NCBI RefSeq assembly: GCF_003334305.1
Contig: NZ_QOWS01000033.1
Length of the DNA: 35,452 bases
Source: Escherichia coli
Lineage (GTDB): Bacteria; Pseudomonadota; Gammaproteobacteria; Enterobacterales; Enterobacteriaceae
Direction: 5' to 3' (one strand)
Part shown: piece by piece, positions 1 through 35,163 of the stretch
How positions within the stretch are numbered: the stretch's first letter is position 1
Layout of the letters: every line of letters begins with the position of its first letter
The notes under the pieces: model-generated
Database searches by the model: none
What the model saw: only the letters and a program-made list of their open reading frames with translations
Told to the model about the DNA's origin: nothing
Made by a program: the position numbers and the translations under genes

Positions 1-2
1 TT

Positions 3-497
3 GGTTTAGGAGAAGGCTCTGCATTACCGGTTGGGGTGCCTGTTCCGTGGCCTTCAGCCACTCCGCCAACAGGCTGGCTGAAATGCAATGGTGCGGCTTT
101 TTCTGCTGAAGAATACCCGGAACTGGCAAAGGCTTACCCGACCAATAAATTGCCTGATTTACGTGGTGAGTTTATTCGTGGCTGGGATGATGAACGTGGT
201 GTGGATAGTGGGCGAACTCTGCTTTCATCGCAAGGAGATGCTATTCGAAACATTACTGGCGGTTTTGGTCAGTTGCGCGTAAACAGCGAAATTAATGCAA
301 TTGTCGATGTTCAAAGTGTGAGTGGGGCTTTTTACGGAGGTACCTCAGTCCGGAATAACATCAATGTGTCTATGACATACGCTAATGACCGAAAAATCCG
401 ACAAGATGTTCACTTCTCGGCGGCAAATGTTGTTCCAACAGCAAATGAAAATCGTCCACGTAACATCGCCTTTAATTATATTGTGAGGGCCGCATGA
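3..497 (+). CDS. Tail fibre protein, C-terminal variable part (5'-truncated by window edge; constant part lies upstream)
   Basis: Frame is open from position 3; the translation (GLGEGSALPVGVPVPW...GWLKCNGAAFSAEEYPEL...) resembles phage tail-fibre tips; the stop overlaps the start of the next gene (ATGA at 494-497). Confidence 0.65.
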   Translation, partial: GLGEGSALPVGVPVPWPSATPPTGWLKCNGAAFSAEEYPELAKAYPTNKLPDLRGEFIRGWDDERGVDSGRTLLSSQGDAIRNITGGFGQLRVNSEINAIVDVQSVSGAFYGGTSVRNNINVSMTYANDRKIRQDVHFSAANVVPTANENRPRNIAFNYIVRAA

Positions 498-1102
498 TGA
501 ATAAAGCTGTATTAAATAGCAAACTCATTGCCATAAAAGCGGGAGACATTATCATTTATAATTATGATGGTGAAACGCGGGAATATATTTCTACATCAAC
601 TGAATATCTCGCTGTCGGCGTCGGTATCCCGGCATGTTCTTGTTTAGATGCTCCGGGCTCAAACAAAGCTGGTTATGCAATTTGTCGTTCTGTAGATTTA
701 AACTCATGGGAATATGTGCCAGACCATCGCGGTGAAGTTGTCTATAGTACCGAAACGGGAGATACCAAAGAAATCACAGCTCCGGGTGATTACCCTGAAA
801 ATACAACCATTATCGCCCCATTAACGCCATACGATAAATGGGATGGTGAGAAATGGGTGACCGATACTGAGGCACAGCATAGCGCCGCAGTAGACGCGGC
901 AGAAGCACAGCGTCAGTCACTGATTGATGCTGCAATGGCTTCCATCAGTCTGATTCAGCTGAAATTACAGGCCGGACGGAAGTTGATGCAGGCAGAAACA
1001 ACCCGGCTTAACGCCGTGCTGGATTACATTGACGCGGTGACGGCAACAGATACCAGCACCGCGCCTGATATTATTTGGCCTGTATTCCCTGAGACTGATT
1101 AA
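494..1102 (+). CDS. Tail fibre assembly chaperone (Tfa / P2 G-like)
   Basis: 202-aa ORF immediately after the tail-fibre gene with start/stop overlap; position and size fit a tail fibre assembly protein. Confidence 0.65.
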   Translation: MMNKAVLNSKLIAIKAGDIIIYNYDGETREYISTSTEYLAVGVGIPACSCLDAPGSNKAGYAICRSVDLNSWEYVPDHRGEVVYSTETGDTKEITAPGDYPENTTIIAPLTPYDKWDGEKWVTDTEAQHSAAVDAAEAQRQSLIDAAMASISLIQLKLQAGRKLMQAETTRLNAVLDYIDAVTATDTSTAPDIIWPVFPETD

Positions 1103-1292
1103 CCTCAATTAGTATTGGTTCGCCTTTCTCATTAATTGTTAGCTCCATGCCCTGAGGAATTTCTGTCATAGTAAAAAACCAGTTGTCCTCCGGTAATTCA
1201 ATAGCCCCGGTCACGTCATGAAGACCGGGGATTACTTCAGTCAAAGTAACTGGATTAAACAGGCGCACAATAAACCCTCCAGGAAAAAGCAT
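1071..1292 (-). CDS. Alternative (inverted-orientation) short tail fibre assembly protein
   Basis: Minus-strand ORF convergent with the plus-strand assembly gene, downstream of the minus-strand fibre cassette; start placed at an internal Met; arrangement mirrors Mu G-segment / e14 cassettes. Confidence 0.35.
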   Translation of the reverse strand: MLFPGGFIVRLFNPVTLTEVIPGLHDVTGAIELPEDNWFFTMTEIPQGMELTINEKGEPILIEVNQSQGIQAK

Positions 1293-1596
1293 TTGATGAT
1301 GGTCTGCCGTCGTACATCTGGCAGCGGGCATAAAAGCCGGTATTTGTTACCTGATCATCCACGATCATTGAAACATGAACATTATTAGGTGTGCTCTCGT
1401 AATCCGTTCTTATTCTTTCCGCGATACTGATAAAACGTGAAAGTTTAGGCAGTGCAATTGGGTAAACAACTTTAGCCAGTCCATTATCATTAGATCCACC
1501 GGTTCCAAATACTTCTATTGCACCGTCTGACCAGCGTATCCATGCACCATTGGCATTAGCTCCTCGCTGAATGACATATCTGGCTTCTCCCAAACC
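1255..1596 (-). CDS. Alternative tail-fibre C-terminal cassette, promoterless, expressed only after inversion
   Basis: Minus-strand frame encodes ...VGLGEARYVIQRGANANGAWIRW...; the VGLGE junction matches the GLGE junction at the window start; the Met codons at 1638 lie outside the inverted repeat and are probably incidental. Confidence 0.5.
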   Translation of the reverse strand, partial: GLGEARYVIQRGANANGAWIRWSDGAIEVFGTGGSNDNGLAKVVYPIALPKLSRFISIAERIRTDYESTPNNVHVSMIVDDQVTNTGFYARCQMYDGRPSSNAFSWRVYCAPV

Positions 1597-1610
1597 AACG
1601 TTTAAGAAAA
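1585..1610. repeat. Invertase crossover site (hix/gix-like), right end of invertible segment; partner half-site at 1-14
   Basis: 1585-1598 TTCTCCCAAACCAA is the reverse complement of window positions 1-14 (TTGGTTTAGGAGAA) with one mismatch; 1585-1610 has the form TTCTCCCAAACC-AA-CGTTTAAGAAAA, resembling the 12-2-12 Hin/Gin crossover sites. Confidence 0.55.
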
Positions 1611-1659
1611 TGCAGAGGTAACAGCTAACTGGCATCATCTCCGGTTTTTATTCAGGGGG

Positions 1660-2232
1660 ATGATCATGCTTATTGGCTATGTACGCGTGTCAACAAATGA
1701 CCAGAACACCGATTTGCAACGTAATGCACTGAACTGCGCGGGATGTGAGCAGATTTTTGAGGACAAAATCAGTGGCACTAAGTCCGACAGACCGGGGCTG
1801 AAAAAACTACTCAGGACACTATCGGCAGGAGACACGCTGGTTGTCTGGAAGCTGGACAGGTTGGGGCGCAGTATGCGGCATCTTGTTACGCTGATAGAAG
1901 AGTTGCGCCAGCGTGGTGTGAATTTCAGAAGCCTGACTGACAGTATTGATACCAGTACCCCAATGGGTCGTTTCTTTTTTCATGTCATGGGTGCCCTGGC
2001 TGAAATGGAACGCGAACTGATAGTTGAACGTACCAGGGCAGGGCTGGCTGCAGCTCGTGCCAAAGGCAGAGTAGGTGGACGCCGTCCTAAGTTGACCACC
2101 GAACAGTGGGCACAGATTGGGCGTTTACTCGAGGCCGGAGAATCAAGACAGCGTATTGCACTGATTTTTGATGTAGGCGTTTCTACCATTTATAGAAAAT
2201 TTCCGGCAAATAAGATCAATGAATCCCCCTGA
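1660..2232 (+). CDS. Serine DNA invertase (Pin/Gin/Hin/Cin family)
   Basis: N-terminus IGYVRVSTNDQ with the catalytic Ser context, a resolvase-type catalytic domain and a C-terminal HTH (GVSTIYRKF); lies directly beside the right crossover site. Confidence 0.85.
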   Translation: MIMLIGYVRVSTNDQNTDLQRNALNCAGCEQIFEDKISGTKSDRPGLKKLLRTLSAGDTLVVWKLDRLGRSMRHLVTLIEELRQRGVNFRSLTDSIDTSTPMGRFFFHVMGALAEMERELIVERTRAGLAAARAKGRVGGRRPKLTTEQWAQIGRLLEAGESRQRIALIFDVGVSTIYRKFPANKINESP

Positions 2233-2374
2233 ATCAGCATTATGTTGATTATCCCTGCAAGCAGACAAATACCGTTATTTTGTGTGAATAACGACACAAC
2301 TGCGCTTAGCTGTTTGTCAGGCACAATCACTTCAACATAGGGCGAAGCCTAATCCAATCAGGAGGTTCGCCACT

Positions 2375-3547
2375 ATGGCTCAGGATTACCACCACGGGGT
2401 GCGCGTTGTTGAAGTCAACGAAGGCACCCGATCTATTACCACGGTGAGCACCGCCATCGTGGGTATGGTCTGCACGGGCGATGATGCCGATGCAAAAATG
2501 TTTCCTCTTAATAAACCCGTGCTGATCACTGATGTGCTGACTGCCAGCGGTAAAGCGGGTGAGTCAGGTACTCTGGCCCGTTCGCTGGATGCCATCGCTG
2601 ACCAGGCAAAACCCGTGACCATTGTTGTGCGTGTGCCGCAGGGTGAAACGGAAGACGAAACCACGACCAATATCATCGGCGCAGTGACTGCTGAAGGTAA
2701 AAAAACAGGTATGAAAGCCCTGTTATCTGCCCAGTCACAGCTCGGCGTTAAACCGCGCATTCTCGGCGTGCCAGGCCACGACACCAAGGCGGTAGCTACT
2801 GAGTTGCTGAGCGTGGCGCAAAGCCTGCGTGGATTTGCTTACCTGTCAGCGTATGGCTGCAAGACAGTGCAGGAGGCGATCACTTACCGCGAAAACTTCA
2901 GCCAGCGCGAAGGGATGCTGATCTGGCCTGACTTTACTGGCTGGGACACGGTGCTGAATGCCGAAGCAACGGCATATGCCACCGCCCGTGCGCTTGGTCT
3001 GCGCGCCAAAATTGACGAGCAGACCGGATGGCACAAAAGCCTGTCCAACGTGGGCGTGAACGGTGTCACCGGAATTTCTGCAGATGTGTTCTGGGATCTG
3101 CAGGACCCGGCAACCGATGCAGGTCTGCTGAACCAGAACGACGTCACCACGCTTGTGCGTAAAGACGGTTTCCGCTTCTGGGGTTCCCGCTGCCTGAGTG
3201 ATGACCCGCTCTTTGCCTTCGAAAACTACACCCGCACGGCGCAGGTGCTGATGGACACGATGGCAGAAGCACACATGTGGGCGGTGGATAAACCGCTTAA
3301 CCCGTCGCTGGCCCGCGACATTATCGAAGGTATCCGCGCCAAAATGCGCAGCCTGGTCAGTCAGGGCTATCTCATTGGTGGTGATTGCTGGCTGGATGAG
3401 TCGGTGAACGACAAAGACACGCTGAAAGCCGGAAAACTCACCATCGACTACGACTACACGCCAGTGCCGCCACTTGAAAACCTGATGCTGCGTCAGCGCA
3501 TCACCGATCAGTACCTGGTGAATTTCGCCAGCCAGGTCAGCGCGTAA
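2375..3547 (+). CDS. Contractile tail sheath protein (P2 FI-like)
   Basis: 390-aa ORF first in the conserved FI-FII-E-T-U-D order; size and position fit the sheath. Confidence 0.8.
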
Positions 3548-3556
3548 GGGGACAAC

Positions 3557-4072
3557 ATGGCATTACCACGCAAATTAAAACACCTGAACCTGTTTAACGA
3601 CGGGAACAACTGGCAGGGGATCGTTGAGTCGCTGACGCTGCCGAAATTTACCCGCAAATATGAGAAGTATCGCGGCGGCGGAATGCCGGGTGCGGTGGAT
3701 GTGGATCTGGGGCTTGATGACAGTGCGCTGGACACAGAATTTTCCATTGGTGGTACTGAATTGCTGCTGTTTAAACAGATGGGTAAAGCCACGGTGGATG
3801 GCATCCAGCTGCGCTTTACCGGCTCTATTCAGCGTGACGATACCGGGGAAGTGCAGGCCGTGGAGCTTGTCGTGCGTGGACGTCACAAAGAAGTGGATTC
3901 CGGCGAGTGGAAGACGGGCGAAAGCAACACCACCAAAGTGACCAGTACCAACAGCTACGCGAAGCTGACCATCAATGGTGAGGTGCTCTATGAAGTGGAC
4001 CTTATCAACATGGTGGAAATTGTGGACGGTGTGGACCTGATGGAAGCGCACCGCAACGCCCTCGGCCTCTGA
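3557..4072 (+). CDS. Tail tube protein (P2 FII-like)
   Basis: 171-aa ORF directly after the sheath gene. Confidence 0.8.
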   Translation: MALPRKLKHLNLFNDGNNWQGIVESLTLPKFTRKYEKYRGGGMPGAVDVDLGLDDSALDTEFSIGGTELLLFKQMGKATVDGIQLRFTGSIQRDDTGEVQAVELVVRGRHKEVDSGEWKTGESNTTKVTSTNSYAKLTINGEVLYEVDLINMVEIVDGVDLMEAHRNALGL

Positions 4073-4126
4073 TATATCTGAACGGCGCGGGATACCGCGC
4101 CAGAACCCAATTGACAGGACAGCAAA

Positions 4127-4429
4127 ATGAGCGATAAGCAGACTGAAAAGACCATTCAACTGGATACCCCCATCAAGCGCGGTAAAACAGAAATCACCGA
4201 AATTGTGCTGCGTAAACCGCAGTCCGGTGCGCTACGCGGTACACGCCTGCAGGCCATTATGGATATGGATGTAAACGCGATGATGACCGTGATCCCCCGC
4301 ATCTCCAGTCCGGCACTGACTGCACAGGAAATTGCAGAGATGGACCCGGCAGATCTCACTGCCATGTCGGTTGAGGTTGTCACTTTTTTGTTGAAGAAGT
4401 CGGTGCTTGCCGGTTTACCGACAGCCTGA
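4127..4429 (+). CDS. Tail assembly chaperone E
   Basis: 100-aa ORF between tube and tape measure; contains the slippery run TTTTTTG near its 3' end. Confidence 0.75.
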   Translation: MSDKQTEKTIQLDTPIKRGKTEITEIVLRKPQSGALRGTRLQAIMDMDVNAMMTVIPRISSPALTAQEIAEMDPADLTAMSVEVVTFLLKKSVLAGLPTA

Positions 4430-4563
4430 CGGTTGACGATCTGGTGGCAGATATCGCCACCATTTTTCACTGGCCGCCATCCGTTACTGACGTTATGCCG
4501 CTGACCGAAGTGCTGGAATGGCGGTATAAAGCGATTCAGAGAAGCGGGGCCAACGATGAGTGA
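4127..4563 (+). CDS. Tail assembly chaperone E+E' made by a programmed -1 frameshift at TTTTTTG (4384-4390)
   Basis: The -1 frame after the slippery site stays open to a TGA at 4561-4563, encoding ...ADIATIFHWPPSVTDVMPLTEVLEWRYKAIQRSGANDE and overlapping the tape-measure ATG at 4556. Confidence 0.6.
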
Positions 4564-7500
4564 TAACAACCTGCGTCTGCAGGTCATTCTTAATGCGGTT
4601 GACAAGCTCACCCGCCCATTTCGATCTGCGCAGGCCAGTTCAAGAGAACTGGCTGCTGCTGTCAAAAAATCCCGCGATGCAATAAAGCAGCTTGATCAGG
4701 CCGGGAGCAGTCTGGACAGCTTCCGAAAGCTGCAGGCAGAAAATCAGAAATTAGGCGACAGGCTGAACTATGCCCGCCAGCGTGCAAATTTGCTCAGTCA
4801 GGAACTGGGAGCGATGGGGCCGCCTTCGCAACGTCAGGTTGTTGCTCTGGGCCGTCAACGGCTGGCTGTTCAGCGCCTGGAAGAACGCCAGAAAAAGCTG
4901 CAGCAGCAGACGGCGCTTGTGCGTGCTGAACTGTACCGGGCGGGAATTTCTGCGAAAGACGATGCGGGAGCAACTGCCCGTTTAGCCCGTGAAACATCAC
5001 GTTATAACCAGGAACTTTCGAAACAGGAGGCGCGGCTGAAGCGACTGGGGGAAGCTCAGCGCAGGATGAATGCAGCGCGTGCCAGTTATGCCCGTTCGCT
5101 GGAGGTGCGTGATCGTATTGCAGGTGCCGGAGCCACCACCACGGCTGCAGGGCTGGCAATGGGTGCGCCAGTGATGGCGGCAGTAAAAAGCTATACCAGC
5201 ATGGAAGATGCCATGAAAGGTGTGGCAAAGCAGGTCAATGGTCTGCGTGACGATAATGGCAACCGCACTGCACGTTTTTATGAAATGCAGGATGCCATCA
5301 AGGCTGCCAGCGAACAGTTGCCGATGGAAAACGGTGCGGTGGACTTCGCTGCACTGGTTGAAGGTGGTGCGCGCATGAACGTCGCAAACCCTGACGACAG
5401 CTGGGAAGATCAGAAACGTGACCTGCTGGCCTTCGCCAGTACGGCAGCAAAGGCGGCAACAGCCTTTGAGCTGCCAGCGGATGAACTGTCAGAAAGTCTG
5501 GGGAAAATCGCCCAGCTCTACAAAATCCCCACCCGCAATATTGAACAGCTCGGTGATGCGCTGAACTATCTGGATGATAACGCCATGTCGAAAGGGGCAG
5601 ACATCATTGATGTGATGCAACGTCTGGGCGGTGTGGCTGACCGTCTGGATTATCGTAAAGCGGCGGCGCTGGGTTCCACCTTCCTGACACTGGGCGCTGC
5701 GCCGGAGGTTGCAGCCAGTGCAGCAAACGCGATGGTGCGTGAATTGTCCATTGCCACCATGCAAAGCAAGAGTTTCTTTGAAGGGATGAATCTGCTGAAA
5801 CTCAATCCTGAAGTGATTGAAAAGCAGATGACGAAGGATGCGATGGGAACCATCCAGCGCGTGCTGGAGAAGGTAAACGCGCTGCCGCAGGACAAGCGCC
5901 TGTCTGCCATGACTATGTTGTTTGGTAAAGAGTTTGGCGATGACGCGGCGAAACTGGCAAACAACCTGCCGGAACTGCAGCGTCAGTTAAAACTGACAGC
6001 GGGCAATGATGCGCTTGGCTCCATGCAGAAAGAATCCGACATTAACAAGGATTCACTTTCTGCGCAGTGGTTGCTGGTCAAAACCGGAGCGCAGAACACC
6101 TTCAGCAGCCTGGGCGAAACGCTGCGCCAGCCGCTGATGGATATTCTGTACACGGTGAAAAGCGTCACGGGGGCGTTGCGTCGCTGGGTGGAAGCTAACC
6201 CGGAACTGACAGGCACACTGATGAAAGCATCGGCTGTTGTGGCTGCGGTTACCGTCGGCCTCGGCACCTTAGCGGTGGCGCTGGCTGCAGTGCTGGGGCC
6301 GCTGGCAGTGATCCGTCTGGGATTCTCTGTGTTGGGTATCAAAACGTTATCTTCCGTTACGGCAGCAGTAACTCGAACCAGCAGCGCGTTGTCCTGGCTG
6401 GCTGGCGCACCACTGGCACTGCTGCGACGCGGGCTTGCTTCATCGGGCAACGCCGCAGGTTTACTTACTGCGCCGTTGTCGTCTTTGCGCCGCACGGCAT
6501 CACTGACGGGAAATGTCCTGAAAACTGTAGCAGGTGCGCCGGTTGCACTTTTGCGGTCTGGATTATCCGGTTTACGTGCGGTTGCTGTGATGTTTATGAA
6601 TCCACTGGCAGCACTACGCGGCGGGCTGGCTGCCGCAGGCACGGTGCTGCGAGTACTGGCATCTGGTCCACTGGCGATGTTGCGCGTTGCCCTGTATGCC
6701 GTATCTGGTCTGTTAGGTGCTCTGCTCAGTCCGATAGGTCTTGTGGTTACTGCACTGGCGGGTGTGGCACTGGTTGTCTGGAAATACTGGCAACCCATCA
6801 CCGCATTTCTCGGTGGCGTGGTGGAAGGATTCAAAGCGGCGGCAGGTCCCATCAGTGCAGCGTTCGAACCGCTTAAGCCTGTGTTCCAGTGGATTGGTGA
6901 CAAAGTGCAGGCGCTGTGGGGCTGGTTTACTGATCTGCTGACGCCCGTTAAGTCGACTTCTGCCGAACTGCAGAGCGCAGCGGCAATGGGGCGACGATTC
7001 GGGGAGGCACTGGCGGAAGGGCTGAATATGGTCATGCATCCGCTGGACTCCCTGAAATCCGGCGTTTCCTGGTTGCTGGAGAAGCTCGGCATTATCAGTA
7101 AAGAGGCCGCAAAGGCAAAACTGCCGGAAAGCGTGACGCGTCAGCAACCTGCGACGGTGAATGCAGACGGTAAAGTGATGATGCCATCGGGTGGTTTTCC
7201 GTCATGGGGATATGGCTTTGCGGGGATGTATGACAGCGGCGGCTATATCCCGCGCGGGCAGTTTGGCATCGTCGGTGAAAACGGGCCGGAAATTGTTAAC
7301 GGCCCGGCAAATGTGACCAGCCGGAGAAATACAGCTGCACTGGCTGCCGTTGTTGCCGGAATGATGGGCGTTGCTGCCGCGCCTGCAGAGCTTCCACCGT
7401 TGCACCCTTTGGCACTTCCCGCGAAAGGCGGCGAAGCGATGGTGAGTCGTGCAGCCACTGTGCCGCCCGTTCAACGGATTGAGGCACCGATGCAGATCAT

Positions 7501-7633
7501 CATTCAGACGCAGCCAGGACAAAGTGCGCAGGATATTGCGCGGGAGGTGGCCCGCCAGCTTGATGAACGTGAACGCAGGCTGAAGGCAAAAGCCAGGAGT
7601 AACTACAGCGATCAGGGGGGATACGACGCATGA
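4556..7633 (+). CDS. Tail tape measure protein (P2 T-like)
   Basis: 1025-aa ORF with a coiled-coil-like N-terminal region, central hydrophobic Ala/Leu/Gly repeats and the canonical position after E/E'. Confidence 0.85.
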   Translation: MSDNNLRLQVILNAVDKLTRPFRSAQASSRELAAAVKKSRDAIKQLDQAGSSLDSFRKLQAENQKLGDRLNYARQRANLLSQELGAMGPPSQRQVVALGRQRLAVQRLEERQKKLQQQTALVRAELYRAGISAKDDAGATARLARETSRYNQELSKQEARLKRLGEAQRRMNAARASYARSLEVRDRIAGAGATTTAAGLAMGAPVMAAVKSYTSMEDAMKGVAKQVNGLRDDNGNRTARFYEMQDAIKAASEQLPMENGAVDFAALVEGGARMNVANPDDSWEDQKRDLLAFASTAAKAATAFELPADELSESLGKIAQLYKIPTRNIEQLGDALNYLDDNAMSKGADIIDVMQRLGGVADRLDYRKAAALGSTFLTLGAAPEVAASAANAMVRELSIATMQSKSFFEGMNLLKLNPEVIEKQMTKDAMGTIQRVLEKVNALPQDKRLSAMTMLFGKEFGDDAAKLANNLPELQRQLKLTAGNDALGSMQKESDINKDSLSAQWLLVKTGAQNTFSSLGETLRQPLMDILYTVKSVTGALRRWVEANPELTGTLMKASAVVAAVTVGLGTLAVALAAVLGPLAVIRLGFSVLGIKTLSSVTAAVTRTSSALSWLAGAPLALLRRGLASSGNAAGLLTAPLSSLRRTASLTGNVLKTVAGAPVALLRSGLSGLRAVAVMFMNPLAALRGGLAAAGTVLRVLASGPLAMLRVALYAVSGLLGALLSPIGLVVTALAGVALVVWKYWQPITAFLGGVVEGFKAAAGPISAAFEPLKPVFQWIGDKVQALWGWFTDLLTPVKSTSAELQSAAAMGRRFGEALAEGLNMVMHPLDSLKSGVSWLLEKLGIISKEAAKAKLPESVTRQQPATVNADGKVMMPSGGFPSWGYGFAGMYDSGGYIPRGQFGIVGENGPEIVNGPANVTSRRNTAALAAVVAGMMGVAAAPAELPPLHPLALPAKGGEAMVSRAATVPPVQRIEAPMQIIIQTQPGQSAQDIAREVARQLDERERRLKAKARSNYSDQGGYDA

Positions 7634-8115
7634 TGATGGTGCTGGGATTGTACGTGTTTATGCTGCGCACCGTGCCGTATCAGGAGCTGCAGTATCAACG
7701 CAGCTGGCGACATGCGGCAAACAGCCGGGTAAACCGACGTCCGTCCACGCAGTTTCTGGGACCGGACAACGACATGCTGACGCTTTCCGGTGTTCTTATG
7801 CCGGAGATAACAGGTGGCAGGCTGTCGTTGCTGGCACTGGAGCAGATGGCAGAACAGGGGAAAGCATGGCCCCTGATTGAAGGCAGCGGCACGATTTATG
7901 GCATGTATGTGATTGAGGGACTGAATCAGACTAAAACGGAGTTTTTCCGCGACGGTATGCCGCGCCGGATTGAGTTCACCCTGTCGCTCAAACGGGTGGA
8001 TGAATCCCTGTCCGATATGTTCGGTGATCTCAGTGCGCAACTGAATAATCTGCAGGAAACGGCAACGTCTGCCTTAAGCGATATCAGTAAAACGGTGGGA
8101 GGGCTGCTGTCGTGA
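7630..8115 (+). CDS. Tail protein U-like
   Basis: 161-aa ORF whose start overlaps the tape-measure stop; position matches P2 gene U. Confidence 0.75.
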   Translation: MMMVLGLYVFMLRTVPYQELQYQRSWRHAANSRVNRRPSTQFLGPDNDMLTLSGVLMPEITGGRLSLLALEQMAEQGKAWPLIEGSGTIYGMYVIEGLNQTKTEFFRDGMPRRIEFTLSLKRVDESLSDMFGDLSAQLNNLQETATSALSDISKTVGGLLS

Positions 8116-9212
8116 ATTTCAGCTCTGAACTGCTTAACAAAAGCAACAAAACTCCGGCATTCAGCATCAGTATTGAGGGCAGGGATATCACTACTGTGCT
8201 GGATAACCGCCTGATGAGTCTGACTCTGACGGACAATCGGGGCTTTGAAGCAGACCAGCTTGATCTGGAGCTGGACGATGCCGACGGGAAAATCGTGCTG
8301 CCGCGCCGTGGTGCGGTCATTACGCTGGCGCTGGGCTGGAAGGGGCAGCCGCTTTTCCCGAAAGGGGCATTCACGGTGGACGAGATTGAACACACTGGCG
8401 CACCGGACCGCCTGACTATCCGGGCGCGAAGTGCTGATTTTCGGGAAACGCTGAATACCCGCCGTGAAAAATCGTGGCACAAGACCACCATTGGGGAAGT
8501 GGTGAAGGAGATAGCCGCGCGGCACAAGCTGAAGATGGTACTGGGTAAAGACCTGTCGGATAAGCTCGTGGAGCATATAGACCAGACTAATGAGAGTGAC
8601 GGTAGTTTTCTGATGCGGCTGGCGCGCCAGTACGGTGCTATTGCGTCGGTGAAAAATGGCAATCTGTTATTCATCCGGCAGGGACAGGGCAAAAGTGCCA
8701 GCGGTAAACCACTGCCGGTGATCACTATCACACGTAAGGACGGCGACAGTCACCGCTTTACCCTGGCAGATCGCGGAGCCTATACGGGCATAATTGCCAG
8801 CTGGTTGCATACCCGCGAACCCGCGAAGAAAGAAAGCACCACGGTGAAGCGTAAGCGCAGGACTAAGAAGCAGAAGAAAGAGCCGGAAGCGAAGCAGGGC
8901 GATTACCTGGTGGGTACGGATGAAAACGTGCTGGTACTTAATCGCACTTATGCCAACCGGAGCAACGCTGAACGGGCAGCGAAAATGCAGTGGGAACGCC
9001 TGCAACGCGGCGTTGCGTCATTCTCGCTACAACTGGCGGAAGGGCGGGCAGATCTCTACACGGAAATGCCAGTGAAAGTCAGTGGCTTTAAACAGCCGAT
9101 AGATGATGCGGAATGGACCATTACGACTCTGACACATACCGTCAGCCCGGATAATGGTTTTACGACCAGTCTTGAGCTTGAAGTGAAGGTTGATGATCTC
9201 GAAATGGAATGA
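8112..9212 (+). CDS. Tail protein D-like (late tail gene)
   Basis: 366-aa ORF with a GTG start overlapping the U stop; position matches P2 gene D. Confidence 0.75.
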   Translation: MNFSSELLNKSNKTPAFSISIEGRDITTVLDNRLMSLTLTDNRGFEADQLDLELDDADGKIVLPRRGAVITLALGWKGQPLFPKGAFTVDEIEHTGAPDRLTIRARSADFRETLNTRREKSWHKTTIGEVVKEIAARHKLKMVLGKDLSDKLVEHIDQTNESDGSFLMRLARQYGAIASVKNGNLLFIRQGQGKSASGKPLPVITITRKDGDSHRFTLADRGAYTGIIASWLHTREPAKKESTTVKRKRRTKKQKKEPEAKQGDYLVGTDENVLVLNRTYANRSNAERAAKMQWERLQRGVASFSLQLAEGRADLYTEMPVKVSGFKQPIDDAEWTITTLTHTVSPDNGFTTSLELEVKVDDLEME

Positions 9213-9302
9213 TTCTTCACAATGGAGAACTTTTAAGTTTGAAAAATGGAATAATGCGATATCATTATTGTGAATTTAGCAAAAATGGGGAGAACTCGAA
9301 AA

Positions 9303-9521
9303 ATGATGATTTGCCCACTGTGTGGAAGTGCCGCCCATACTCGCAGCAGTTTTCAGGTATCTTCATTGACCAAAGAGCGTTACAACCAGTGCCAGAACAT
9401 TAACTGCAGCCATACTTTTGTTACCCATGAAACTTTTGTTCGTTCGATTGCAACGCCAAAAGAGTCAAATCCGGTTCAGCCGCATCCTCATAAATTTAAA
9501 CAGGTGGGTTTGCCGATTTAA
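9303..9521 (+). CDS. ogr: Ogr/Delta-type zinc-finger late transcription activator
   Basis: CPLCGSAAHTRSS...YNQCQNINCSHTF is a C4 zinc-finger pattern like P2 Ogr; start placed at the Met preceding CPLC, with a GGGAGA Shine-Dalgarno upstream. Confidence 0.75.
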   Translation: MMICPLCGSAAHTRSSFQVSSLTKERYNQCQNINCSHTFVTHETFVRSIATPKESNPVQPHPHKFKQVGLPI

Positions 9522-9585
9522 ATGGCGACATAACTACATGATTTAAAACTATACTTTTCTATAAGTTGAGGTTAAATTAACAATG

Positions 9586-9762
9586 CCTGACGTTAGCGGG
9601 GATTTATCCCCACTCCGTAGATATGTAGTTTGTCGCTTTGCGACTGCGGACCGATTACCTGATTGCCATGTAATCGGACGCCGACTTGTTAAGCTTTCTG
9701 GGCTAACTGGTTGTTATTTTTTATTTAGTTAGGGCCATGCGCTTGCGCTAAGAGACGTCAGG
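9586..9762 (+). ncRNA. Candidate structured non-coding RNA upstream of the reverse transcriptase (retron msr/msd-like or DRT-type ncRNA)
   Basis: Long-range inverted repeat CCTGACGTTAGCG (9586-9598) with CGCTA-AGAG-ACGTCAGG (9746-9762) enclosing hairpins at 9598-9611, 9632-9644 and 9651-9677; no convincing ORF inside. Confidence 0.4.
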
Positions 9763-9782
9763 TATCTATGGAGGAACAAGTT

Positions 9783-9956
9783 ATGGATACAAACGAACTT
9801 GGCTTAGTTAAGGCGCGTGTTGAACTGATCACCGCTATGCTCAAATGCGCAACCGCGTTTGTTGGCTTAGTTGGTGCGGTTTACGCCGTTCTTAACATGG
9901 CCTTCAACTACAACAATTTAACTCATGACAATAGAAGTTCAAAGGTGGGAAGATAA
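9783..9956 (+). CDS. Small hypothetical protein with one hydrophobic helix (possible small effector, or frameshifted RT N-terminus)
   Basis: Only open frame across 9768-9956; GGAGGA Shine-Dalgarno about 7 nt before the ATG at 9783; hydrophobic stretch AFVGLVGAVYAVLNMAF; overlaps the RT start by about 30 nt in another frame. Confidence 0.3.
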   Translation: MDTNELGLVKARVELITAMLKCATAFVGLVGAVYAVLNMAFNYNNLTHDNRSSKVGR

Positions 9957-10698
9957 ATTTGAGATTAAGCCCGGGGTTTGGGTTTATGTCCCAAGCGTTG
10001 AGGCACGTAAAGTCGGAGGGAAGATACTTCAGGCTGTCAGAAACAAGTGGATTCCGCCACTCTATTTTTACCATCTAAGAACTGGTGGGCATCTTAAAGC
10101 TGCCAGATTACACTTAAAAAGTGATTTTTTTGCCGTTGTTGATATTAAACAATTTTTTCAGTCAACGAGCCGTAGTCGTATCACCCGTGATCTAAAGAGC
10201 TACTTCACCTATTCTCAAGCGCGGGAAATCTCAACATTTTCAACTGTAAGAAACTTGTCCCATAGTCCACATAAGCATGTCCTCCCTTTTGGTTTTGTTC
10301 AATCTCCAATACTTGCAACCCTCTGCTTAGATAAAAGTTATTTTGGTAGCTTACTACGCCGATTGAACAAACATCATGATCTCAAGCTAAGTGTGTTTAT
10401 GGATGATGTGATCATCTCGTCAAACGATTTGGCCCAATTACAAGCGGCTTACGACGAAGCACTAGTGGCAATGCGTAAATCTGGTTATCAAGCCAACATG
10501 AGTAAAACTCAGGCACCATCGTCAAAGATTAGCGTGTTTAATTTAACTTTGAGTAAGGGAGTTATGAAAGTCACATCTCAGAAAATGAGTGACTTCCTGA
10601 TTGATTTCTATTCAAGCAATTATGAGCCGCACAGAATAGGGGTCAAAAACTACGTCGAAGCTGTTAATCCAGGGCAAGCGAAACTCTTTAAGTTGTAA
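9925..10698 (+). CDS. Compact reverse transcriptase (retron/Abi/DRT-like RT domain)
   Basis: RT motifs readable in the translation: fingers FEIKPGVWVYVPS, motif A VVDIKQFFQS, motif B LPFGFVQSPILATLCL, catalytic YxDD box FMDD; AT-rich with rare codons (AGA, ATA, CTA). Confidence 0.75.
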   Translation: MTIEVQRWEDKFEIKPGVWVYVPSVEARKVGGKILQAVRNKWIPPLYFYHLRTGGHLKAARLHLKSDFFAVVDIKQFFQSTSRSRITRDLKSYFTYSQAREISTFSTVRNLSHSPHKHVLPFGFVQSPILATLCLDKSYFGSLLRRLNKHHDLKLSVFMDDVIISSNDLAQLQAAYDEALVAMRKSGYQANMSKTQAPSSKISVFNLTLSKGVMKVTSQKMSDFLIDFYSSNYEPHRIGVKNYVEAVNPGQAKLFKL

Positions 10699-10806
10699 TT
10701 GCGATCGCATGTAGTAGCAACTGGGCTTGACTGAATGTCTGCCGCCATTTTGCCGCCACTACTAAAGAAAAAAGGGCTACGCTTTCACGTAACCCCTTGA
10801 TTTATT

Positions 10807-11169
10807 TGGTGGAGCTGGCGGGAGTTGAACCCGCGTCCGAAATTCCTACATCCTCGGTACTACATGCTTAGTCAGTCTTTACATTCGCTTGCCAGCTGCG
10901 GACGGACACGCCACTAACAAACTAGCCTGATTAAGTTTTAACGCTTCAACCCCAGGCAGGGCTTCCACGCGATCTCTTTTGGGTTTGACCTCTCTTGATC
11001 CCCGTCCTAAGAGCGGAGGCTAGGGAGAGAGGGCTCTAAGCAGGTTATTAAGCTGCTAAAGCGTAGTTTTCGTCGTTTGCGACTATTTTTTGCGGCTTTT
11101 TACGAGGCCAACCGCCCCTCGGCATGCACCTTGGGTTTCGCAAATCCCGTCGAATCCAGAATCAGCCCC
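10807..11169 (-). ncRNA. ssrA: tmRNA (SsrA)
   Basis: Reverse complement matches E. coli tmRNA from GGGGCTGATTCTGG (5' end at 11169) to GCTCCACCA (3' end at 10807), including the tag-coding region. Confidence 0.95.
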
Positions 11170-15931: not shown

Positions 15932-15979
15932 TTTTCCGAGGTCCTTGTTGCGAAGATTGATGACAATGTGAGTGCTTCC

Positions 15980-16008
15980 CTTGAAACCCTGAAACTGATC
16001 CCCATAAT
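15980..16008 (+). promoter_or_regulatory. Sigma-32 heat-shock promoter of grpE
   Basis: CTTGAAA (15980-15986), 13-nt spacer, CCCCATAAT (16000-16008): a close match to the sigma-32 consensus. Confidence 0.6.
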
Positions 16009-16020
16009 AAGCGAAGTTAG

Positions 16021-16647
<627 letters not shown>

Positions 16648-23153: not shown

Positions 23154-24380
23154 TTATCTCACCAGCTTTTCGGCACGCTGGTGTTTGGCCTGATACATAT
23201 TGTGATCGGCAAGCTCTTGTAATTTTTCCGCAGAGGCGTGCTCAATGGTCATCGCGTAACCAATGCTTAATGTCATGGTGGTCTGATGGCCATTATGAAG
23301 ATCAAACGGGAGATTAAAGATTTGTGTCAGTGCTGAGCATATCTGCTGCACTTCAGATTCTGACTGTACATCATAGAGCACCATAGCGAATTCATCGCCG
23401 CCCAGGCGGTATGCTTTATGTCGCAGCCCGCCAAATTCAGCTAACCGTTTTGCGATTTCAATCAAGACCCTATCGCCCGTCGCATGACCCCAGGTATCAT
23501 TGATGTATTTGAAATTATCGCCATCAAGAAATAGTAACGCCGACGTTTTTCGGGCATCGGAATTGTTCATCAACGTGTTGATGCCGCTACGAAACGCTGC
23601 GCGGTTAGCCAGCCCGGTTAATGGGTCATGTAGCGCGGTACGTAGAAGCTGCGCATTTTTAGCCTGTAAACGAAGCTGCCACTCTTCCATTTCATCCAGC
23701 AGACTGTTGAAGTCGAGAGCGAAGCGGTGAAACTCAGCGATACGTTCTTCCGAAACTCGTCGGGAAAAATTGCGGTTGGAACGCACATCATGTACGACAT
23801 CGGTGATATTTTTCAGTGCTTCCACCAGGCCATTGTGCAAATGGCGGGTGAGGGTAATTGCGATTCCTGATGCCAGCAGAATACAACCGGTCAGTACGGC
23901 GAGCGAAAACCAGATAAAATGGCTGATTGAACTGTCGCGAGCGGTTAAGCGTACTTCGCCAATGGTTTCGCCATTGTGACGAATCGGCTGAATGATGGGG
24001 GCAGGGAAGAGCCAGTGGCTTATGAAATTGCTGAAAGTATCGCCTGGATCCTTACGGGTGTAATGCCAGGATGCCAGAATATTTTGCTGCTTATCACGTA
24101 CTTCTGCAGTTGAAAATTGCCCTTGCTGGCCCAGCGCTGCCAGTGTTTCAGTTGCTGCAGGGCCATCGGCAAAAACGACAGCTGCTTCCAGACTGTAAGT
24201 CATTGTTGCTGCTGTCAGTGCCAGGTTTTTTTGCGCGTACTGTTTCAGGGTCAGCACCGAGGTCACGGAAAGCAGCAACCAGATCAGCATCATAGTGATA
24301 AATATGCTGGTCATACTGATGTTGCGTAATGCTCTTTTAAACGTGGGGCGCTTATTAAGAGAATTATCGTTATCCATCAT
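23154..24380 (-). CDS. dgcN: Diguanylate cyclase DgcN (YfiN), GGDEF domain
   Basis: N-terminal transmembrane/HAMP region and a C-terminal GGDEF-type domain (RLGGDEF). Confidence 0.85.
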
Positions 24381-27857: not shown

Positions 27858-29018
27858 TCAGGTTGGATCAACAGGCACTACGTTCTCACTTGGGTAACAG
27901 CCCAATACCTTCATTGAACGGGTAATTTCCCCTAACTCTTTCAATGCTTTTTGCATTTCCGCTGATTCAAGATTGGCCTGAATATCCAGATAAAACATCT
28001 CTTCCCATGGATTACCGTGAATCGGGCGTGATTCCAGACGGGTCATAATCAGATTGTGGTTGCGCAGCACCAGCAACGCTTCAACCAGCGCACCGGCTTG
28101 TTGCCCGGTCGCCATTAACAACGTCGTTTTCGCCGGAACCTGGTCAGACACGTTAATGGCTTTACGTGCCAACACCACAAATCGGGTGAAGTTTTGTTGC
28201 TGATTCGCTTCAATACGCTCCAGTACCTGCAAACCGTACAAAGTGCCGCCAGCTTCGCTTCCCAACGCAGCAACATGCGGTGATTTTGCCTGTGCAACCT
28301 TTTCCATTGCCGCAGACGTACTTTCGGTATATTCAATCTTCCAGTGAGGATAACGATTAAGGAATTTGCTGCATTGCTGGAATGGCTGCGGATGGCTGTA
28401 GACCGTATTAATGGTGGATAAATCAGTCGTGCCGGAGACCAACAAACAATGGTCGATAGTTAACGTCATCTCGCCAACAATCGACAAGCTGGTATGTTGC
28501 AGCAGATCGTAAACGTCGTTTATGGCACCGGAGCTGGTATTTTCAATCGGTACGACGGCATAGTCGGCCTGGCCGGTTTCCACCTGATTAAAAATATCGG
28601 CAAATTTGGCGCAGCCACTTTCAATGAATTGCTCAAAGTGACGGGCAGCATACTGGCGCGCCGCAAGATGGGAATAAGAACCTTTGGGGCCGAGAAAAGC
28701 GATGCGTGCTGAGTGCGGATTAATTTTATTGAGATGTTGCTGGAGCAAAGCCTGCTGAGTTAATACGGAATCTTCAATGATGAGCTGGAACAGGCGAGTA
28801 ATGTAATGGGCGTCCAGATGGTGCGCTTTACCGAGCGTAATTAATCTTTCCAGTAAATCGCGTTCACGATCAATATCTCGTACCGGGCGATGCGAGAGCA
28901 GTTTGGCTTTTCCTACCTCGACGGCCAATTCGCGCCGCTCTGCCAGTAATGCTAATAATTTTTCATCCAGCGCGCTGATTTTCTCTCGCAGCGCCAGTAA
29001 CGGGTTTTCCGATGTCAT
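27858..29018 (-). CDS. pheA: Bifunctional chorismate mutase / prephenate dehydratase PheA
   Basis: 386-aa translation; leader peptide and attenuator lie upstream. Confidence 0.95.
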
Positions 29019-29039: not shown

Positions 29040-29075
29040 ATAAAAAAGGCCCCCCGATTTGGGAGGCCTTATTGT
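29040..29075 (-). terminator. pheA attenuator terminator hairpin
   Basis: On the minus strand GGCCTCCC-AAATC-GGGGGGCC followed by a T-run, between pheL and pheA. Confidence 0.6.
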
Positions 29076-29116
29076 TCGTCTTCGCATTCTGTTTCACACG
29101 ACGAAACGCCTCCCAT

Positions 29117-29164
29117 TCAGGGGAAGGTAAAAAAGAATGCGAAGAAAAACGGTGTGTGTTTCAT
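29117..29164 (-). CDS. pheL: pheA leader peptide, 15 aa, Phe-rich ([15 protein letters not shown])
   Basis: Direct translation of the reverse complement gives seven Phe codons in 15. Confidence 0.85.
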   Translation of the reverse strand: [15 protein letters not shown]

Positions 29165-29267
29165 GTTTGTTTCCTTAAGTGACTTTAGTACAGTACCCGT
29201 ACTGTTTTCACGCTGTCAACAAAAAACGCGCCCGAAGGCGCGTTGGCGATACACTCAATATAAAGGA

Positions 29268-31732: not shown

Positions 31733-32460
31733 GTAAGCTGATTGTCCCGCAGTGGCCGCTGCCAAAAGGTGTTGCGGCCTGTAGCTCTACTCGTATCGGC
31801 GGCGTGAGCTTGCCCCCGTATGACTCACTCAACCTCGGTGCCCATTGTGGCGATAACCCGGATCACGTTGAGGAGAATCGCAAGCGACTTTTTGCTGCGG
31901 GCAATTTGCCTTCTAAACCGGTCTGGCTTGAGCAGGTACACGGCAAAGATGTGCTTAAGCTTACTGGCGAACCTTATGCCTCAAAACGAGCTGATGCCTC
32001 TTATAGCAATACGCCTGGCACGGTTTGCGCAGTGATGACTGCCGACTGCCTCCCTGTGCTGTTTTGCAATCGAGTGGGAACGGAAGTCGCCGCCGCTCAT
32101 GCTGGCTGGCGTGGACTGTGCGCAGGCGTGCTGGAAGAGACGGTTTCCTGTTTTGCTGATAATCCGGAAAATATTCTCGCCTGGTTAGGGCCGGCAATTG
32201 GTCCACGCGCGTTCGAAGTGGGGGTGGAGGTTCGCGAGGCGTTTATGGCAGTAGACGCTAAAGCAAGTGCAGCTTTCATTCAGCATGGTGATAAGTATCT
32301 GGCGGATATTTATCAGCTTGCCCGGCAGCGTCTGGCGAACGTGGGTGTTGAGCAAATTTTCGGCGGCGACCGTTGTACATATACGGAAAATGAGACTTTC
32401 TTCTCTTATCGTCGCGACAAGACCACCGGTCGTATGGCAAGTTTCATTTGGCTGATATAA
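31729..32460 (+). CDS. yfiH: YfiH / PgeF (purine nucleoside phosphorylase / laccase-domain protein)
   Basis: 243 aa; start overlaps the rluD stop; conserved position before clpB. Confidence 0.85.
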   Translation: MSKLIVPQWPLPKGVAACSSTRIGGVSLPPYDSLNLGAHCGDNPDHVEENRKRLFAAGNLPSKPVWLEQVHGKDVLKLTGEPYASKRADASYSNTPGTVCAVMTADCLPVLFCNRVGTEVAAAHAGWRGLCAGVLEETVSCFADNPENILAWLGPAIGPRAFEVGVEVREAFMAVDAKASAAFIQHGDKYLADIYQLARQRLANVGVEQIFGGDRCTYTENETFFSYRRDKTTGRMASFIWLI

Positions 32461-32522
32461 CCTAAAGAATCAAGACGATCCGGTACGCGTGATTTTCTTT
32501 TCACATTAATCTGGTCAATAAC

Positions 32523-32550
32523 CTTGAATAATTGAGGGATGACCTCATTT
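32523..32550 (+). promoter_or_regulatory. Sigma-32 heat-shock promoter of clpB
   Basis: CTTGAA (32523-32528), 14-nt spacer, CCTCATTT (32543-32550), resembling the sigma-32 -35/-10 consensus. Confidence 0.5.
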
Positions 32551-32589
32551 AATCTCCAGTAGCAACTTTGATCCGTTATGGGAGGAGTT

Positions 32590-35163
32590 ATGCGTCTGGA
32601 TCGTCTTACTAATAAATTCCAGCTTGCTCTTGCCGATGCCCAATCACTTGCACTCGGGCACGACAACCAATTTATCGAACCACTTCATTTAATGAGCGCC
32701 CTGCTGAATCAGGAAGGGGGTTCGGTTAGTCCTTTATTAACATCCGCTGGCATCAATGCTGGCCAGTTGCGCACAGATATCAATCAGGCATTAAATCGTT
32801 TACCGCAGGTTGAAGGTACTGGTGGTGATGTCCAGCCATCACAGGATCTGGTGCGCGTTCTTAATCTTTGCGACAAGCTGGCGCAAAAACGTGGTGATAA
32901 CTTTATCTCGTCAGAACTGTTCGTTCTGGCGGCACTTGAGTCTCGCGGCACGCTGGCCGACATCCTGAAAGCAGCAGGGGCGACCACCGCCAACATTACT
33001 CAAGCGATTGAACAAATGCGTGGAGGTGAAAGCGTGAACGATCAAGGTGCTGAAGACCAACGTCAGGCTTTGAAAAAATATACCATCGACCTTACCGAAC
33101 GAGCCGAACAGGGCAAACTCGATCCGGTGATTGGTCGTGATGAAGAAATTCGCCGTACCATTCAGGTGCTGCAACGTCGTACTAAAAATAACCCGGTACT
33201 GATTGGTGAACCCGGCGTCGGTAAAACTGCCATCGTTGAAGGTCTGGCGCAGCGTATTATCAACGGCGAAGTGCCGGAAGGATTGAAAGGCCGCCGCGTA
33301 CTGGCGCTGGATATGGGCGCGCTGGTGGCTGGGGCGAAATATCGCGGTGAGTTTGAAGAACGTTTAAAAGGCGTGCTTAACGATCTTGCCAAACAGGAAG
33401 GCAACGTCATCCTGTTTATCGACGAATTACATACCATGGTCGGCGCGGGTAAAGCCGATGGCGCAATGGACGCCGGAAACATGCTGAAACCGGCGCTGGC
33501 GCGTGGTGAATTGCACTGCGTAGGTGCCACGACGCTTGACGAATATCGCCAGTACATTGAAAAAGATGCTGCGCTGGAACGTCGTTTCCAGAAAGTGTTT
33601 GTTGCCGAGCCTTCCGTTGAAGATACCATTGCGATTCTGCGTGGCCTGAAAGAACGTTACGAATTGCACCACCATGTGCAAATTACTGACCCGGCAATTG
33701 TTGCAGCGGCGACGTTGTCTCATCGCTACATTGCTGACCGTCAGCTGCCGGATAAAGCCATCGACCTGATCGATGAAGCAGCATCCAGCATTCGTATGCA
33801 GATTGACTCAAAACCAGAAGAACTCGACCGACTCGATCGTCGTATCATCCAGCTCAAACTGGAACAACAGGCGTTAATGAAAGAGTCTGATGAAGCCAGT
33901 AAAAAACGCCTGGATATGCTCAACGAAGAACTGAGCGACAAAGAACGTCAGTACTCCGAGTTAGAAGAAGAGTGGAAAGCAGAGAAGGCATCGCTTTCTG
34001 GTACGCAGACCATTAAAGCGGAACTGGAACAGGCGAAAATCGCTATTGAACAGGCTCGCCGTGTGGGGGACCTGGCGCGGATGTCTGAACTGCAATACGG
34101 CAAAATCCCGGAACTGGAAAAGCAACTGGAAGCCGCAACGCAGCTCGAAGGCAAAACTATGCGTCTGTTGCGTAATAAAGTGACCGATGCCGAAATTGCT
34201 GAAGTGCTGGCGCGTTGGACGGGGATTCCGGTTTCTCGCATGATGGAAAGCGAGCGCGAAAAACTGCTGCGTATGGAACAAGAACTGCACCATCGCGTCA
34301 TTGGTCAGAACGAAGCGGTTGATGCGGTATCTAACGCTATTCGCCGTAGCCGTGCGGGGTTGGCGGATCCAAATCGCCCGATTGGTTCATTCCTGTTCCT
34401 CGGCCCAACGGGTGTGGGGAAAACTGAGCTTTGTAAGGCGCTGGCGAACTTTATGTTTGATAGCGACGAGGCGATGGTCCGTATCGATATGTCCGAGTTT
34501 ATGGAGAAACACTCGGTGTCTCGTCTGGTTGGTGCGCCTCCGGGATATGTCGGTTATGAAGAAGGTGGCTACCTGACCGAAGCTGTGCGTCGTCGTCCGT
34601 ATTCCGTCATCCTGCTGGATGAAGTGGAAAAAGCGCATCCGGATGTCTTCAACATTCTGTTGCAGGTACTGGATGATGGTCGTCTGACTGACGGGCAGGG
34701 GAGAACGGTCGACTTCCGTAATACGGTTGTCATTATGACCTCTAACCTCGGTTCCGATTTGATTCAGGAACGCTTCGGTGAACTGGATTATGCGCACATG
34801 AAAGAGCTGGTGCTCGGTGTGGTAAGCCATAACTTCCGTCCGGAATTCATTAACCGTATTGATGAAGTGGTGGTCTTCCATCCGCTGGGTGAACAGCACA
34901 TTGCCTCGATTGCGCAGATTCAGTTGAAACGTCTGTACAAACGTCTGGAAGAACGTGGTTATGAAATCCACATTTCTGACGAGGCGCTGAAACTGCTGAG
35001 CGAGAACGGTTACGATCCAGTCTATGGTGCACGTCCTTTGAAACGTGCTATCCAGCAGCAGATCGAAAACCCGCTGGCACAGCAAATACTGTCTGGTGAA
35101 TTGGTTCCGGGTAAAGTGATTCGCCTGGAAGTTAATGAAGACCGGATTGTCGCCGTCCAGTAA
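32590..35163 (+). CDS. clpB: Disaggregase chaperone ClpB (Hsp100)
   Basis: 857 aa from [10 protein letters not shown]; two AAA+ modules with Walker A motifs ([16 protein letters not shown]) and a middle coiled coil. Confidence 0.95.

Follow-up and report, generated by a model that had tools for sequence, protein, structure and literature searches.

Sigma-32-type heat-shock promoters of grpE and clpB in an Escherichia coli contig, and the overlap of the clpB promoter with the small RNA gene ryfD

The window, that is, the whole stretch of 35,452 bp of DNA that was analysed, belongs to E. coli: the 1-kb piece around grpE was matched in 5,426 of 5,426 complete E. coli genomes, with an identity below 99% in 2,306 of them. 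The K-12-like part of the window carries ssrA, smpB, ratA, bamE, recN, nadK, grpE, ffh, rpsP-rplS, aroF-tyrA, pheA, raiA, bamD, rluD, yfiH, and clpB in this order, which is the gene order of the 58-59 min region of K-12 on the opposite strand. Base for base, MG1655 has the same DNA (100% identity) between nadK and grpE and between yfiH and clpB, and the two promoters described here are therefore literally the K-12 promoters. On the minus strand of K-12, the grpE promoter has its -35 element at 2750782-2750777 and its -10 element at 2750762-2750754, and the clpB promoter has them at 2734240-2734235 and 2734220-2734213, respectively. Two structured RNAs of the region were recovered by Rfam, namely tmRNA (ssrA) at 10807-11169 on the minus strand (296 bits) and the Phe leader of pheA at 29040-29165 on the minus strand (132 bits).

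An earlier note on this DNA had placed one sigma-32 promoter at 15980-16008, upstream of grpE, and another at 32523-32550, upstream of clpB. Both motifs were found at these coordinates exactly as claimed. The features of the two loci are as follows (PWM, position weight matrix).

15980..15986, plus strand: sigma-32 -35 element of grpE, CTTGAAA; preceded by TTCC, fits cCTTGAA, and is part of the top PWM match
16000..16008, plus strand: sigma-32 -10 element of grpE, CCCCATAAT; its last six bases, CATAAT, also resemble a sigma-70 -10 element
16015..16017, plus strand: transcription start region of grpE; A16015 by dnaK P1 geometry, published 5' end at 16017
16054..16647, plus strand: grpE coding sequence, 197 aa, from the ORF list and the RefSeq annotation of identical DNA
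32523..32528, plus strand: sigma-32 -35 element of clpB, CTTGAA; part of the second-best PWM match in the window
32543..32550, plus strand: sigma-32 -10 element of clpB, CCTCATTT; T for consensus C at -13
32558..32559, plus strand: predicted sigma-32 starts of clpB, A then G, 32 and 31 nt before the ATG; placed by dnaK P1 geometry, 7 nt past the -10 block
32590..35163, plus strand: clpB coding sequence, 857 aa, with the annotated start at 32590 (RefSeq)

The grpE site lies on the coding strand, 74 nt 5' of the start codon; CTTGAAA is followed after 13 nt by CCCCATAAT, and ATG 16054 comes 46 nt after the -10 element. The clpB site also lies on the coding strand, 67 nt 5' of the start codon, and consists of CTTGAA, 14 nt, and CCTCATTT, followed by GGAGG and ATG 32590. 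The ORF list begins clpB at ATG 32578, inside the Shine-Dalgarno sequence, and RefSeq begins it at 32590. Further downstream in clpB, an internal GTG start at 33034-33036 (plus strand), with GGAGG before it (33022-33026), is that of the short isoform ClpB80 annotated in K-12.

The sigma-32 consensus and geometry were taken from the sigma-32 open-complex structure paper and BioCyc; in the former, CTTGAA occupies -35 to -30 of dnaK P1 and CCCCAT occupies -15 to -10. The -35 context of grpE, TGCTTCCCTTGAAA, is a good fit to the C-rich upstream extension in the consensus TNtCNCcCTTGAA; that of clpB, CAATAACCTTGAAT, is a poor one. The -10 element of grpE, CCCCATAA(T), matches 7/7 specified bases of the consensus CCCCATNT, apart from the register of the last T, and that of clpB has a single mismatch, at -13. 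The gap between CTTGAA and the CCCCAT-type block is 14 nt at both sites, as in dnaK P1 (sigma-32 range tested, 13-15 nt). The resemblance to the sigma-32 consensus that the earlier note had asserted was thus borne out, the core bases of dnaK P1 being matched 12/12 by grpE and 11/12 by clpB. Unlike dnaK P1, clpB has a T at -13, and the -10 element of grpE ends in AAT, which creates the sigma-70-like CATAAT.

We examined how far the two motifs exceed chance. A loose consensus, CTTGAA-N12-16-CCNCAT, searched on both strands of the 35,452 bp, matched only at the grpE and clpB sites, with 0.07 matches expected and at least two matches in 0/100 shuffles. CCNCAT was used since a stricter pattern, CCNCATNT, misses grpE, whose -10 element ends in AA. 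CTTGAA alone was not enriched in the window (13 observed versus 23 expected). A PWM was then built from the K-12 upstream regions of eleven other heat-shock genes by an iterative two-block search, from which grpE and clpB were excluded. The search recovered the classical promoters of dnaK P1, clpP, lon, htpG, fxsA, groS, hslV, ibpA, htpX, and rlmE, and these ten sites were used; five of them have a gap of 14 nt, four have 15 nt, and the remaining one has 13 nt. The site picked by the motif finder for yrfG (4.6 bits) looked wrong and was left out.

In this PWM scoring, a check that the earlier note had proposed, grpE (21.1 bits) and clpB (17.0 bits) ranked first and second among 70,840 window positions. 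Their scores are within the range of 8/10 training promoters (leave-one-out, 12.5-20.9), clpP giving 14.7 and htpX being an outlier at 2.8. In dinucleotide-preserving shuffles of the window, the grpE score was reached in 0/300, so that the grpE motif is far beyond chance on its own. The clpB score was reached in 41/300 (14%), and the clpB motif therefore convinces only when its position, strand, and conservation are considered as well; two sites of that score appeared in 1/300. The grpE site is as good a match as groS or htpG, and the clpB site is a middling match that takes its significance from its context. The next PWM sites, both sub-threshold and intragenic, were at 23499 (plus strand, 14.2 bits), antisense in dgcN, and at 28547 (minus strand, 13.4 bits), sense in pheA; both are probably chance matches.

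These statistics bear on the notion that both motifs are chance matches without promoter function. Short two-block motifs are common, and the motif by itself predicts weakly, given that just 52 of 1,036 genomic instances of the RpoH motif were bound (E. coli RpoH ChIP-exo paper). Against a chance origin, no other PWM site in the window scores as high as these two, a pair of that score being so rare in shuffles, and they lie on the correct strand, at promoter distance, upstream of the two classical heat-shock genes of the window. The mapped 5' ends and the conservation described below effectively refute it, and we regard it as having a negligible probability.

Published 5' ends were compared with the two sites. 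For grpE, the Mendoza-Vargas 2009 supplement gives a 5' end at -37 relative to the ATG, which carries the flag 'Known' and is 2 nt away from the grpE promoter of RegulonDB; gcttCCCTTGAAAccct is reported there as the -35 box of this known promoter. The 5' end corresponds to window position 16017, 8 nt past the -10 block, and fits the sigma-32 expectation of ~6-9 nt. The start-site comparison foreseen by the earlier note thus came out in favour of the grpE promoter. For clpB, it came out as consistent yet unpinned. The passage of PMC6941012 that quotes Squires 1991 describes a primary A and an adjacent secondary G by primer extension, and A32558/G32559 would be consistent with this pair, with the AG at 32561-62 as an alternative. 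The Mendoza-Vargas 2009 supplement also records, for clpB, a minor 5' end at -24 that has 2 reads, carries the flag 'New', and was assigned a sigma-70-type -10; we take it to be a processed or minor end. In the parts of the Cho 2014 and Kim 2012 supplements that were available, no grpE or clpB start sites were found by gene name, b-number, or coordinate, and neither gene is mentioned in the genomic SELEX study of Shimada 2017. RpoH ChIP in Salmonella shows clpB bound and does not name grpE, and the E. coli RpoH ChIP-exo paper confirmed 39/40 previously reported RpoH promoters.

Absence of the motifs from close relatives would have counted against the promoters, and they proved to be retained there. 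Each promoter, taken as a 48-bp segment, was present in 5,426/5,426 complete E. coli genomes, with at least 99% identity over the aligned stretch in 5,423. For grpE, one genome per species was scanned, which yielded 80 Enterobacteriaceae loci (GrpE identity 83-99%) with 77 distinct upstream sequences. CTTGAA, TCCCCATAATAA, and the 14-nt gap were invariant in all 77, as were positions 15998-16010, and the spacer (ACCCTGAAACTG, TCCCGGAAACTG, ACCCGCAGCACG) and the DNA 5' of the -35 element varied. Boxes fixed around a variable spacer constitute a clean phylogenetic footprint of a two-box promoter. One of the loci, L059 (CACSKA010000005.1), is labelled Chryseobacterium sp. and has an Enterobacteriaceae-type grpE locus, with a GrpE identity of 88% and the same upstream sequence as L038 (labelled Citrobacter sp. 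18056); judging from these sequences, mislabelling or contamination of the record is probable.

For clpB, 120 metagenomic loci were retrieved with a degenerate pattern covering its first eleven codons, and their ClpB N-terminal identities range from 100% down to ~51%. A sigma-32-type site scoring at least 12 bits in the PWM was present in 86 of the 89 distinct full-length upstream sequences, and in 85 of the 89 it lay at -57 to -71 from the ATG. Such a site was still found at clpB in relatives with only 51-71% ClpB N-terminal identity, in which the flanks had diverged; in the most distant, where other resemblance was gone, CCTTGAA-14-CCCCAA or CTTGAA-14-TCCCAT, for example, was retained. CCTCAT is conserved through the Enterobacterales, and CCCCAA or TCCCAT stands at that place in the farther relatives. 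In the hslV promoter, the same C-to-T change in the -10 element reduced expression 1.7-fold and eliminated activation by RpoH (PMC2681174); the off-consensus CCTCAT of clpB is nonetheless kept across the Enterobacterales. Within this order, 32520-32610 is nearly invariant, the spacer TTGAGGGATGA included, and this invariance is confounded because the RyfD RNA overlaps the block. With invariant footprints at both genes and a mapped grpE start downstream of its site, a chance origin of the two motifs has little left to rest on.

Considering that sequence, position and strand, PWM rank, and conservation in E. coli and the Enterobacterales all agree, the sigma-32 reading is supported, and the two sites are almost certainly the native sigma-32 (RpoH) heat-shock promoters of grpE and clpB. 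The earlier note had called them heat-shock promoters, and the DNA is indeed that of the characterised K-12 promoters. The grpE element is the same as the K-12 promoter listed as grpEp in RegulonDB/EcoCyc (K-12 2750754-2750782, minus strand), 100% identical and with no difference. The clpB element is identical in sequence to its K-12 counterpart (K-12 2734213-2734240), whose adjacent A/G starts fit 32558/59. The heat-shock promoter of K-12 grpE was reportedly described by Lipinska et al. in 1988 and that of K-12 clpB by Kitagawa et al. and by Squires et al. in 1991. Both genes are said to be rpoH-dependent and heat-induced, in work associated with the names Lipinska 1988, Kitagawa 1991, Squires 1991, and Nonaka 2006. 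From such established knowledge we infer that the source strain, too, would show sigma-32 dependence and heat induction of both genes. Both promoters are already known, and have long been so; they are the same elements in another strain and nothing new. The finding itself matters little, as two textbook promoters of the heat-shock regulon have been re-identified, and its use is that of a positive control for recognising sigma-32 promoters from sequence.

The expected mode of action draws on established sigma-32 biology and the cryo-EM paper, with the 5' ends taken from the literature. In the sigma-32 RNA polymerase, region 4 of sigma would contact CTTGAA at -35, and the CCCCAT-type block (-15 to -10) would be bound via sigma-32 regions 3 and 2, with melting of the DNA. 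Transcription would start ~7 nt downstream, at ~16015-16017 for grpE and ~32558/59 for clpB, leaving leaders of 37-39 nt and 31-32 nt, respectively. Unfolded proteins would titrate DnaK/DnaJ/GrpE, sigma-32 would accumulate, and both genes would be induced with the rest of the regulon; GrpE would then exert negative feedback on sigma-32.

The tail of the grpE -10 element raises the question of a second sigma factor. The grpE site (15981-16008, plus strand) can also be read as a sigma-70-type TTGAAA-16-CATAAT with 10/12 matches. A sigma-70 scan for TTGACA and TATAAT separated by 16-18 nt, which asked for at least 9/12 matches and for A and T at positions 2 and 6 of the -10, respectively, found this to be the only such site in the grpE intergenic region, and among 12 sigma-32 promoters only fxsA scored as high. 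The grpE promoter may thus have dual specificity, with sigma-70 reading TTGAAA and CATAAT; this would add to the sigma-32 reading and not replace it. Overlap of sigma-32 and sigma-70 promoters is a known phenomenon. GrpE is essential at all temperatures, and a sigma-70 contribution from the same start is therefore plausible; if true, sigma-70 would supply basal grpE transcription when sigma-32 is scarce. In line with such a role, none of the 77 sequences departs from CCCCATAAT, not even in the AAT tail, which the sigma-32 consensus leaves loose, and the ChIP-exo paper cites Wade 2006 for the presence of RpoD at many of the annotated heat-shock genes. The 16-nt spacer, however, is suboptimal for sigma-70, and the conserved AAT tail could equally serve sigma-32 or the discriminator and initial transcribed region. 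On these sequence grounds we consider dual specificity a possibility to be entertained, with somewhat more doubt than belief.

Several other properties of the grpE upstream region were recorded. The predicted fold of the grpE leader (16015-16110) is no more stable than that of shuffled sequences (z = +0.12), and the leader therefore gives no evidence of an RNA thermometer or similar element. Across about 80 species there is almost no variation, even at synonymous positions, in the leader and the initial ~45 nt of the grpE reading frame (16017-16100, plus strand), and a small GGGGCAAGCCCC hairpin at 16083-16094 (plus strand) lies in this near-invariant stretch. In the divergent nadK-grpE intergenic region, GACAAT at 15961-15966 (plus strand), 14 nt 5' of the grpE -35 element, is invariant amid variable DNA; a nadK promoter or leader, or the site of a regulator, are possibilities. 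The sigma-70 scan of this intergenic region yielded no sigma-70-type promoter for nadK.

The clpB promoter lies within a second gene, ryfD, which has the same orientation and encodes an abundant small RNA. This gene spans the whole yfiH-clpB intergenic region with the entire sigma-32 promoter of clpB and extends over the initial 21 nt of the clpB reading frame (codons 1-7). Its features are as follows.

32453..32461, plus strand: putative extended -10 element of RyfD, TGATATAAC; overlaps the yfiH stop codon, 7 nt before the annotated 5' end A32468
32468..32610, plus strand: RyfD small RNA gene (K-12 ryfD, b4609, 2734153-2734295; Rfam RF02768)
32472..32495, plus strand: 5' arm of the RyfD closing helix in the minimum-free-energy (MFE) fold; 5' of the sigma-32 promoter and absent from sigma-32-initiated mRNA
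32585..32607, plus strand: 3' arm of the RyfD closing helix in the MFE fold; comprises the start codon of clpB, the 5 nt that precede it, and codons 2-6

The Rfam model RF02768 (RyfD/Ysr155) matched window positions 32471-32609 over model positions 1-140 with 125.3 bits (gathering threshold, 42 bits). This is a full-model match, and the 3' end of the gene at 32610 is the mapped Term-seq end at K-12 2734153, which in strength far exceeds the neighbouring entries given in the Adams 2021 tables. RyfD contains no ORF; the RNA was validated by northern blotting in Yersinia pestis, where it was constitutive with respect to temperature and hfq, and has recently been seen contacting the lpp 5' UTR. 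RyfD is an overlapping gene on the same strand and offers no alternative identity for the clpB promoter. Upstream of it, ATGGCA-16-TATAAC with an upstream TG has a score of 9/12, and TGnTAnAAn occurs at a fixed spacing 5' of RyfD in 57 of 73 relatives, a count confounded by the coding constraint on yfiH. TGATATAAC may be part of RyfD's own promoter, which is a prediction only.

The 143-nt RyfD RNA is predicted to be highly structured (MFE -52 kcal/mol, z = -5.6; 0/200 shuffles as stable). Its closing helix of 23 bp buries the clpB start codon in the predicted fold, and an mRNA that starts at 32558 and lacks the 5' arm folds no better than shuffles (z = +0.55). For the cofold of the arm with the start region, energies lie between about -28 and -41 kcal/mol in nearly all Enterobacterales sequences, the exceptions being L095 and L143, which have lost the arm, and between -9 and -22 kcal/mol in farther relatives. 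In a 68-sequence alignment, 88% of cells in the helix were paired, versus 34-46% with the partner slid. Covariation in the helix was weak, with double changes in four pairs and 95 of 500 shuffles doing as well. Most changes are one-sided (A-U to G-U) and covariation is weak because the 3' arm is coding and nearly invariant. Conserved complementarity, and not covariation, is what argues for the predicted helix. A second, small conserved hairpin, UGAGG/CCUCA, is formed by the clpB spacer and -10 element, in which the off-consensus T pairs with A32535.

Given this overlap, the clpB block might be conserved as part of RyfD, with its sigma-32 resemblance incidental. The near-invariance of 32520-32610, which includes TTGAGGGATGA, goes beyond what a promoter alone would constrain, the spacer and the -10 element are engaged in the UGAGG/CCUCA hairpin, and the window-wide chance of such a PWM score is about 0.14. 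Distant relatives that have no RyfD-like sequence or long helix, however, keep CTTGAA-14-CCCCAA/TCCCAT at the same distance from the ATG. Primer extension and RpoH binding in Salmonella point the same way, the quoted starts lying just past the -10 element and clpB being bound by RpoH. Moreover, RyfD is constitutive, whereas clpB is heat-induced, the latter from established knowledge. We therefore judge an incidental resemblance very improbable, and a working sigma-32 promoter of clpB inside ryfD remains the preferred reading. Keeping the UGAGG/CCUCA hairpin may explain both the conserved clpB spacer and the off-consensus CCTCAT at -10.

With the clpB promoter nested in ryfD, we speculated whether promoter choice sets the translatability of clpB. 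In a transcript from the RyfD promoter or from yfiH read-through, 32472-32495 would pair with the clpB start, and the RNA would end as RyfD. A sigma-32-started transcript would lack the 5' arm, keep an open ribosome-binding site, and be a translatable clpB mRNA. Upstream-started transcripts would thus be shut as RyfD and sigma-32-started ones open, and ClpB synthesis would be insulated from upstream transcription. We offer this model tentatively and think it rather unlikely to hold. The papers on RyfD that were consulted do not discuss its relation to clpB promoter choice. The function of RyfD is still poorly understood, and the nesting supplies a concrete hypothesis on how two overlapping genes might be kept separate; as the grpE and clpB promoters are already known, the nested RyfD/clpB arrangement is the only part of this analysis with some potential for novelty.

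At the other end of the window, left of ssrA, positions 1-10700 (plus strand) hold a P2-like prophage remnant, distinct from the CP4-57 element of K-12. A serine recombinase/invertase is encoded in it at 1660-2232, followed by a tail tube protein at 3557-4072, a tape measure protein at 4556-7633, and, at 8112-9212, a VgrG-related (gpD-like) protein. By the ssrA attachment site, at the variable end of the prophage, lies a 257-aa reverse-transcriptase ORF (9925-10698, plus strand). Among the PADLOC models, retron RT type VI matches it best (63 bits, E = 7e-18), and it stays below every NCBIfam cut-off; it may be a defence reverse transcriptase of the retron or Abi type.
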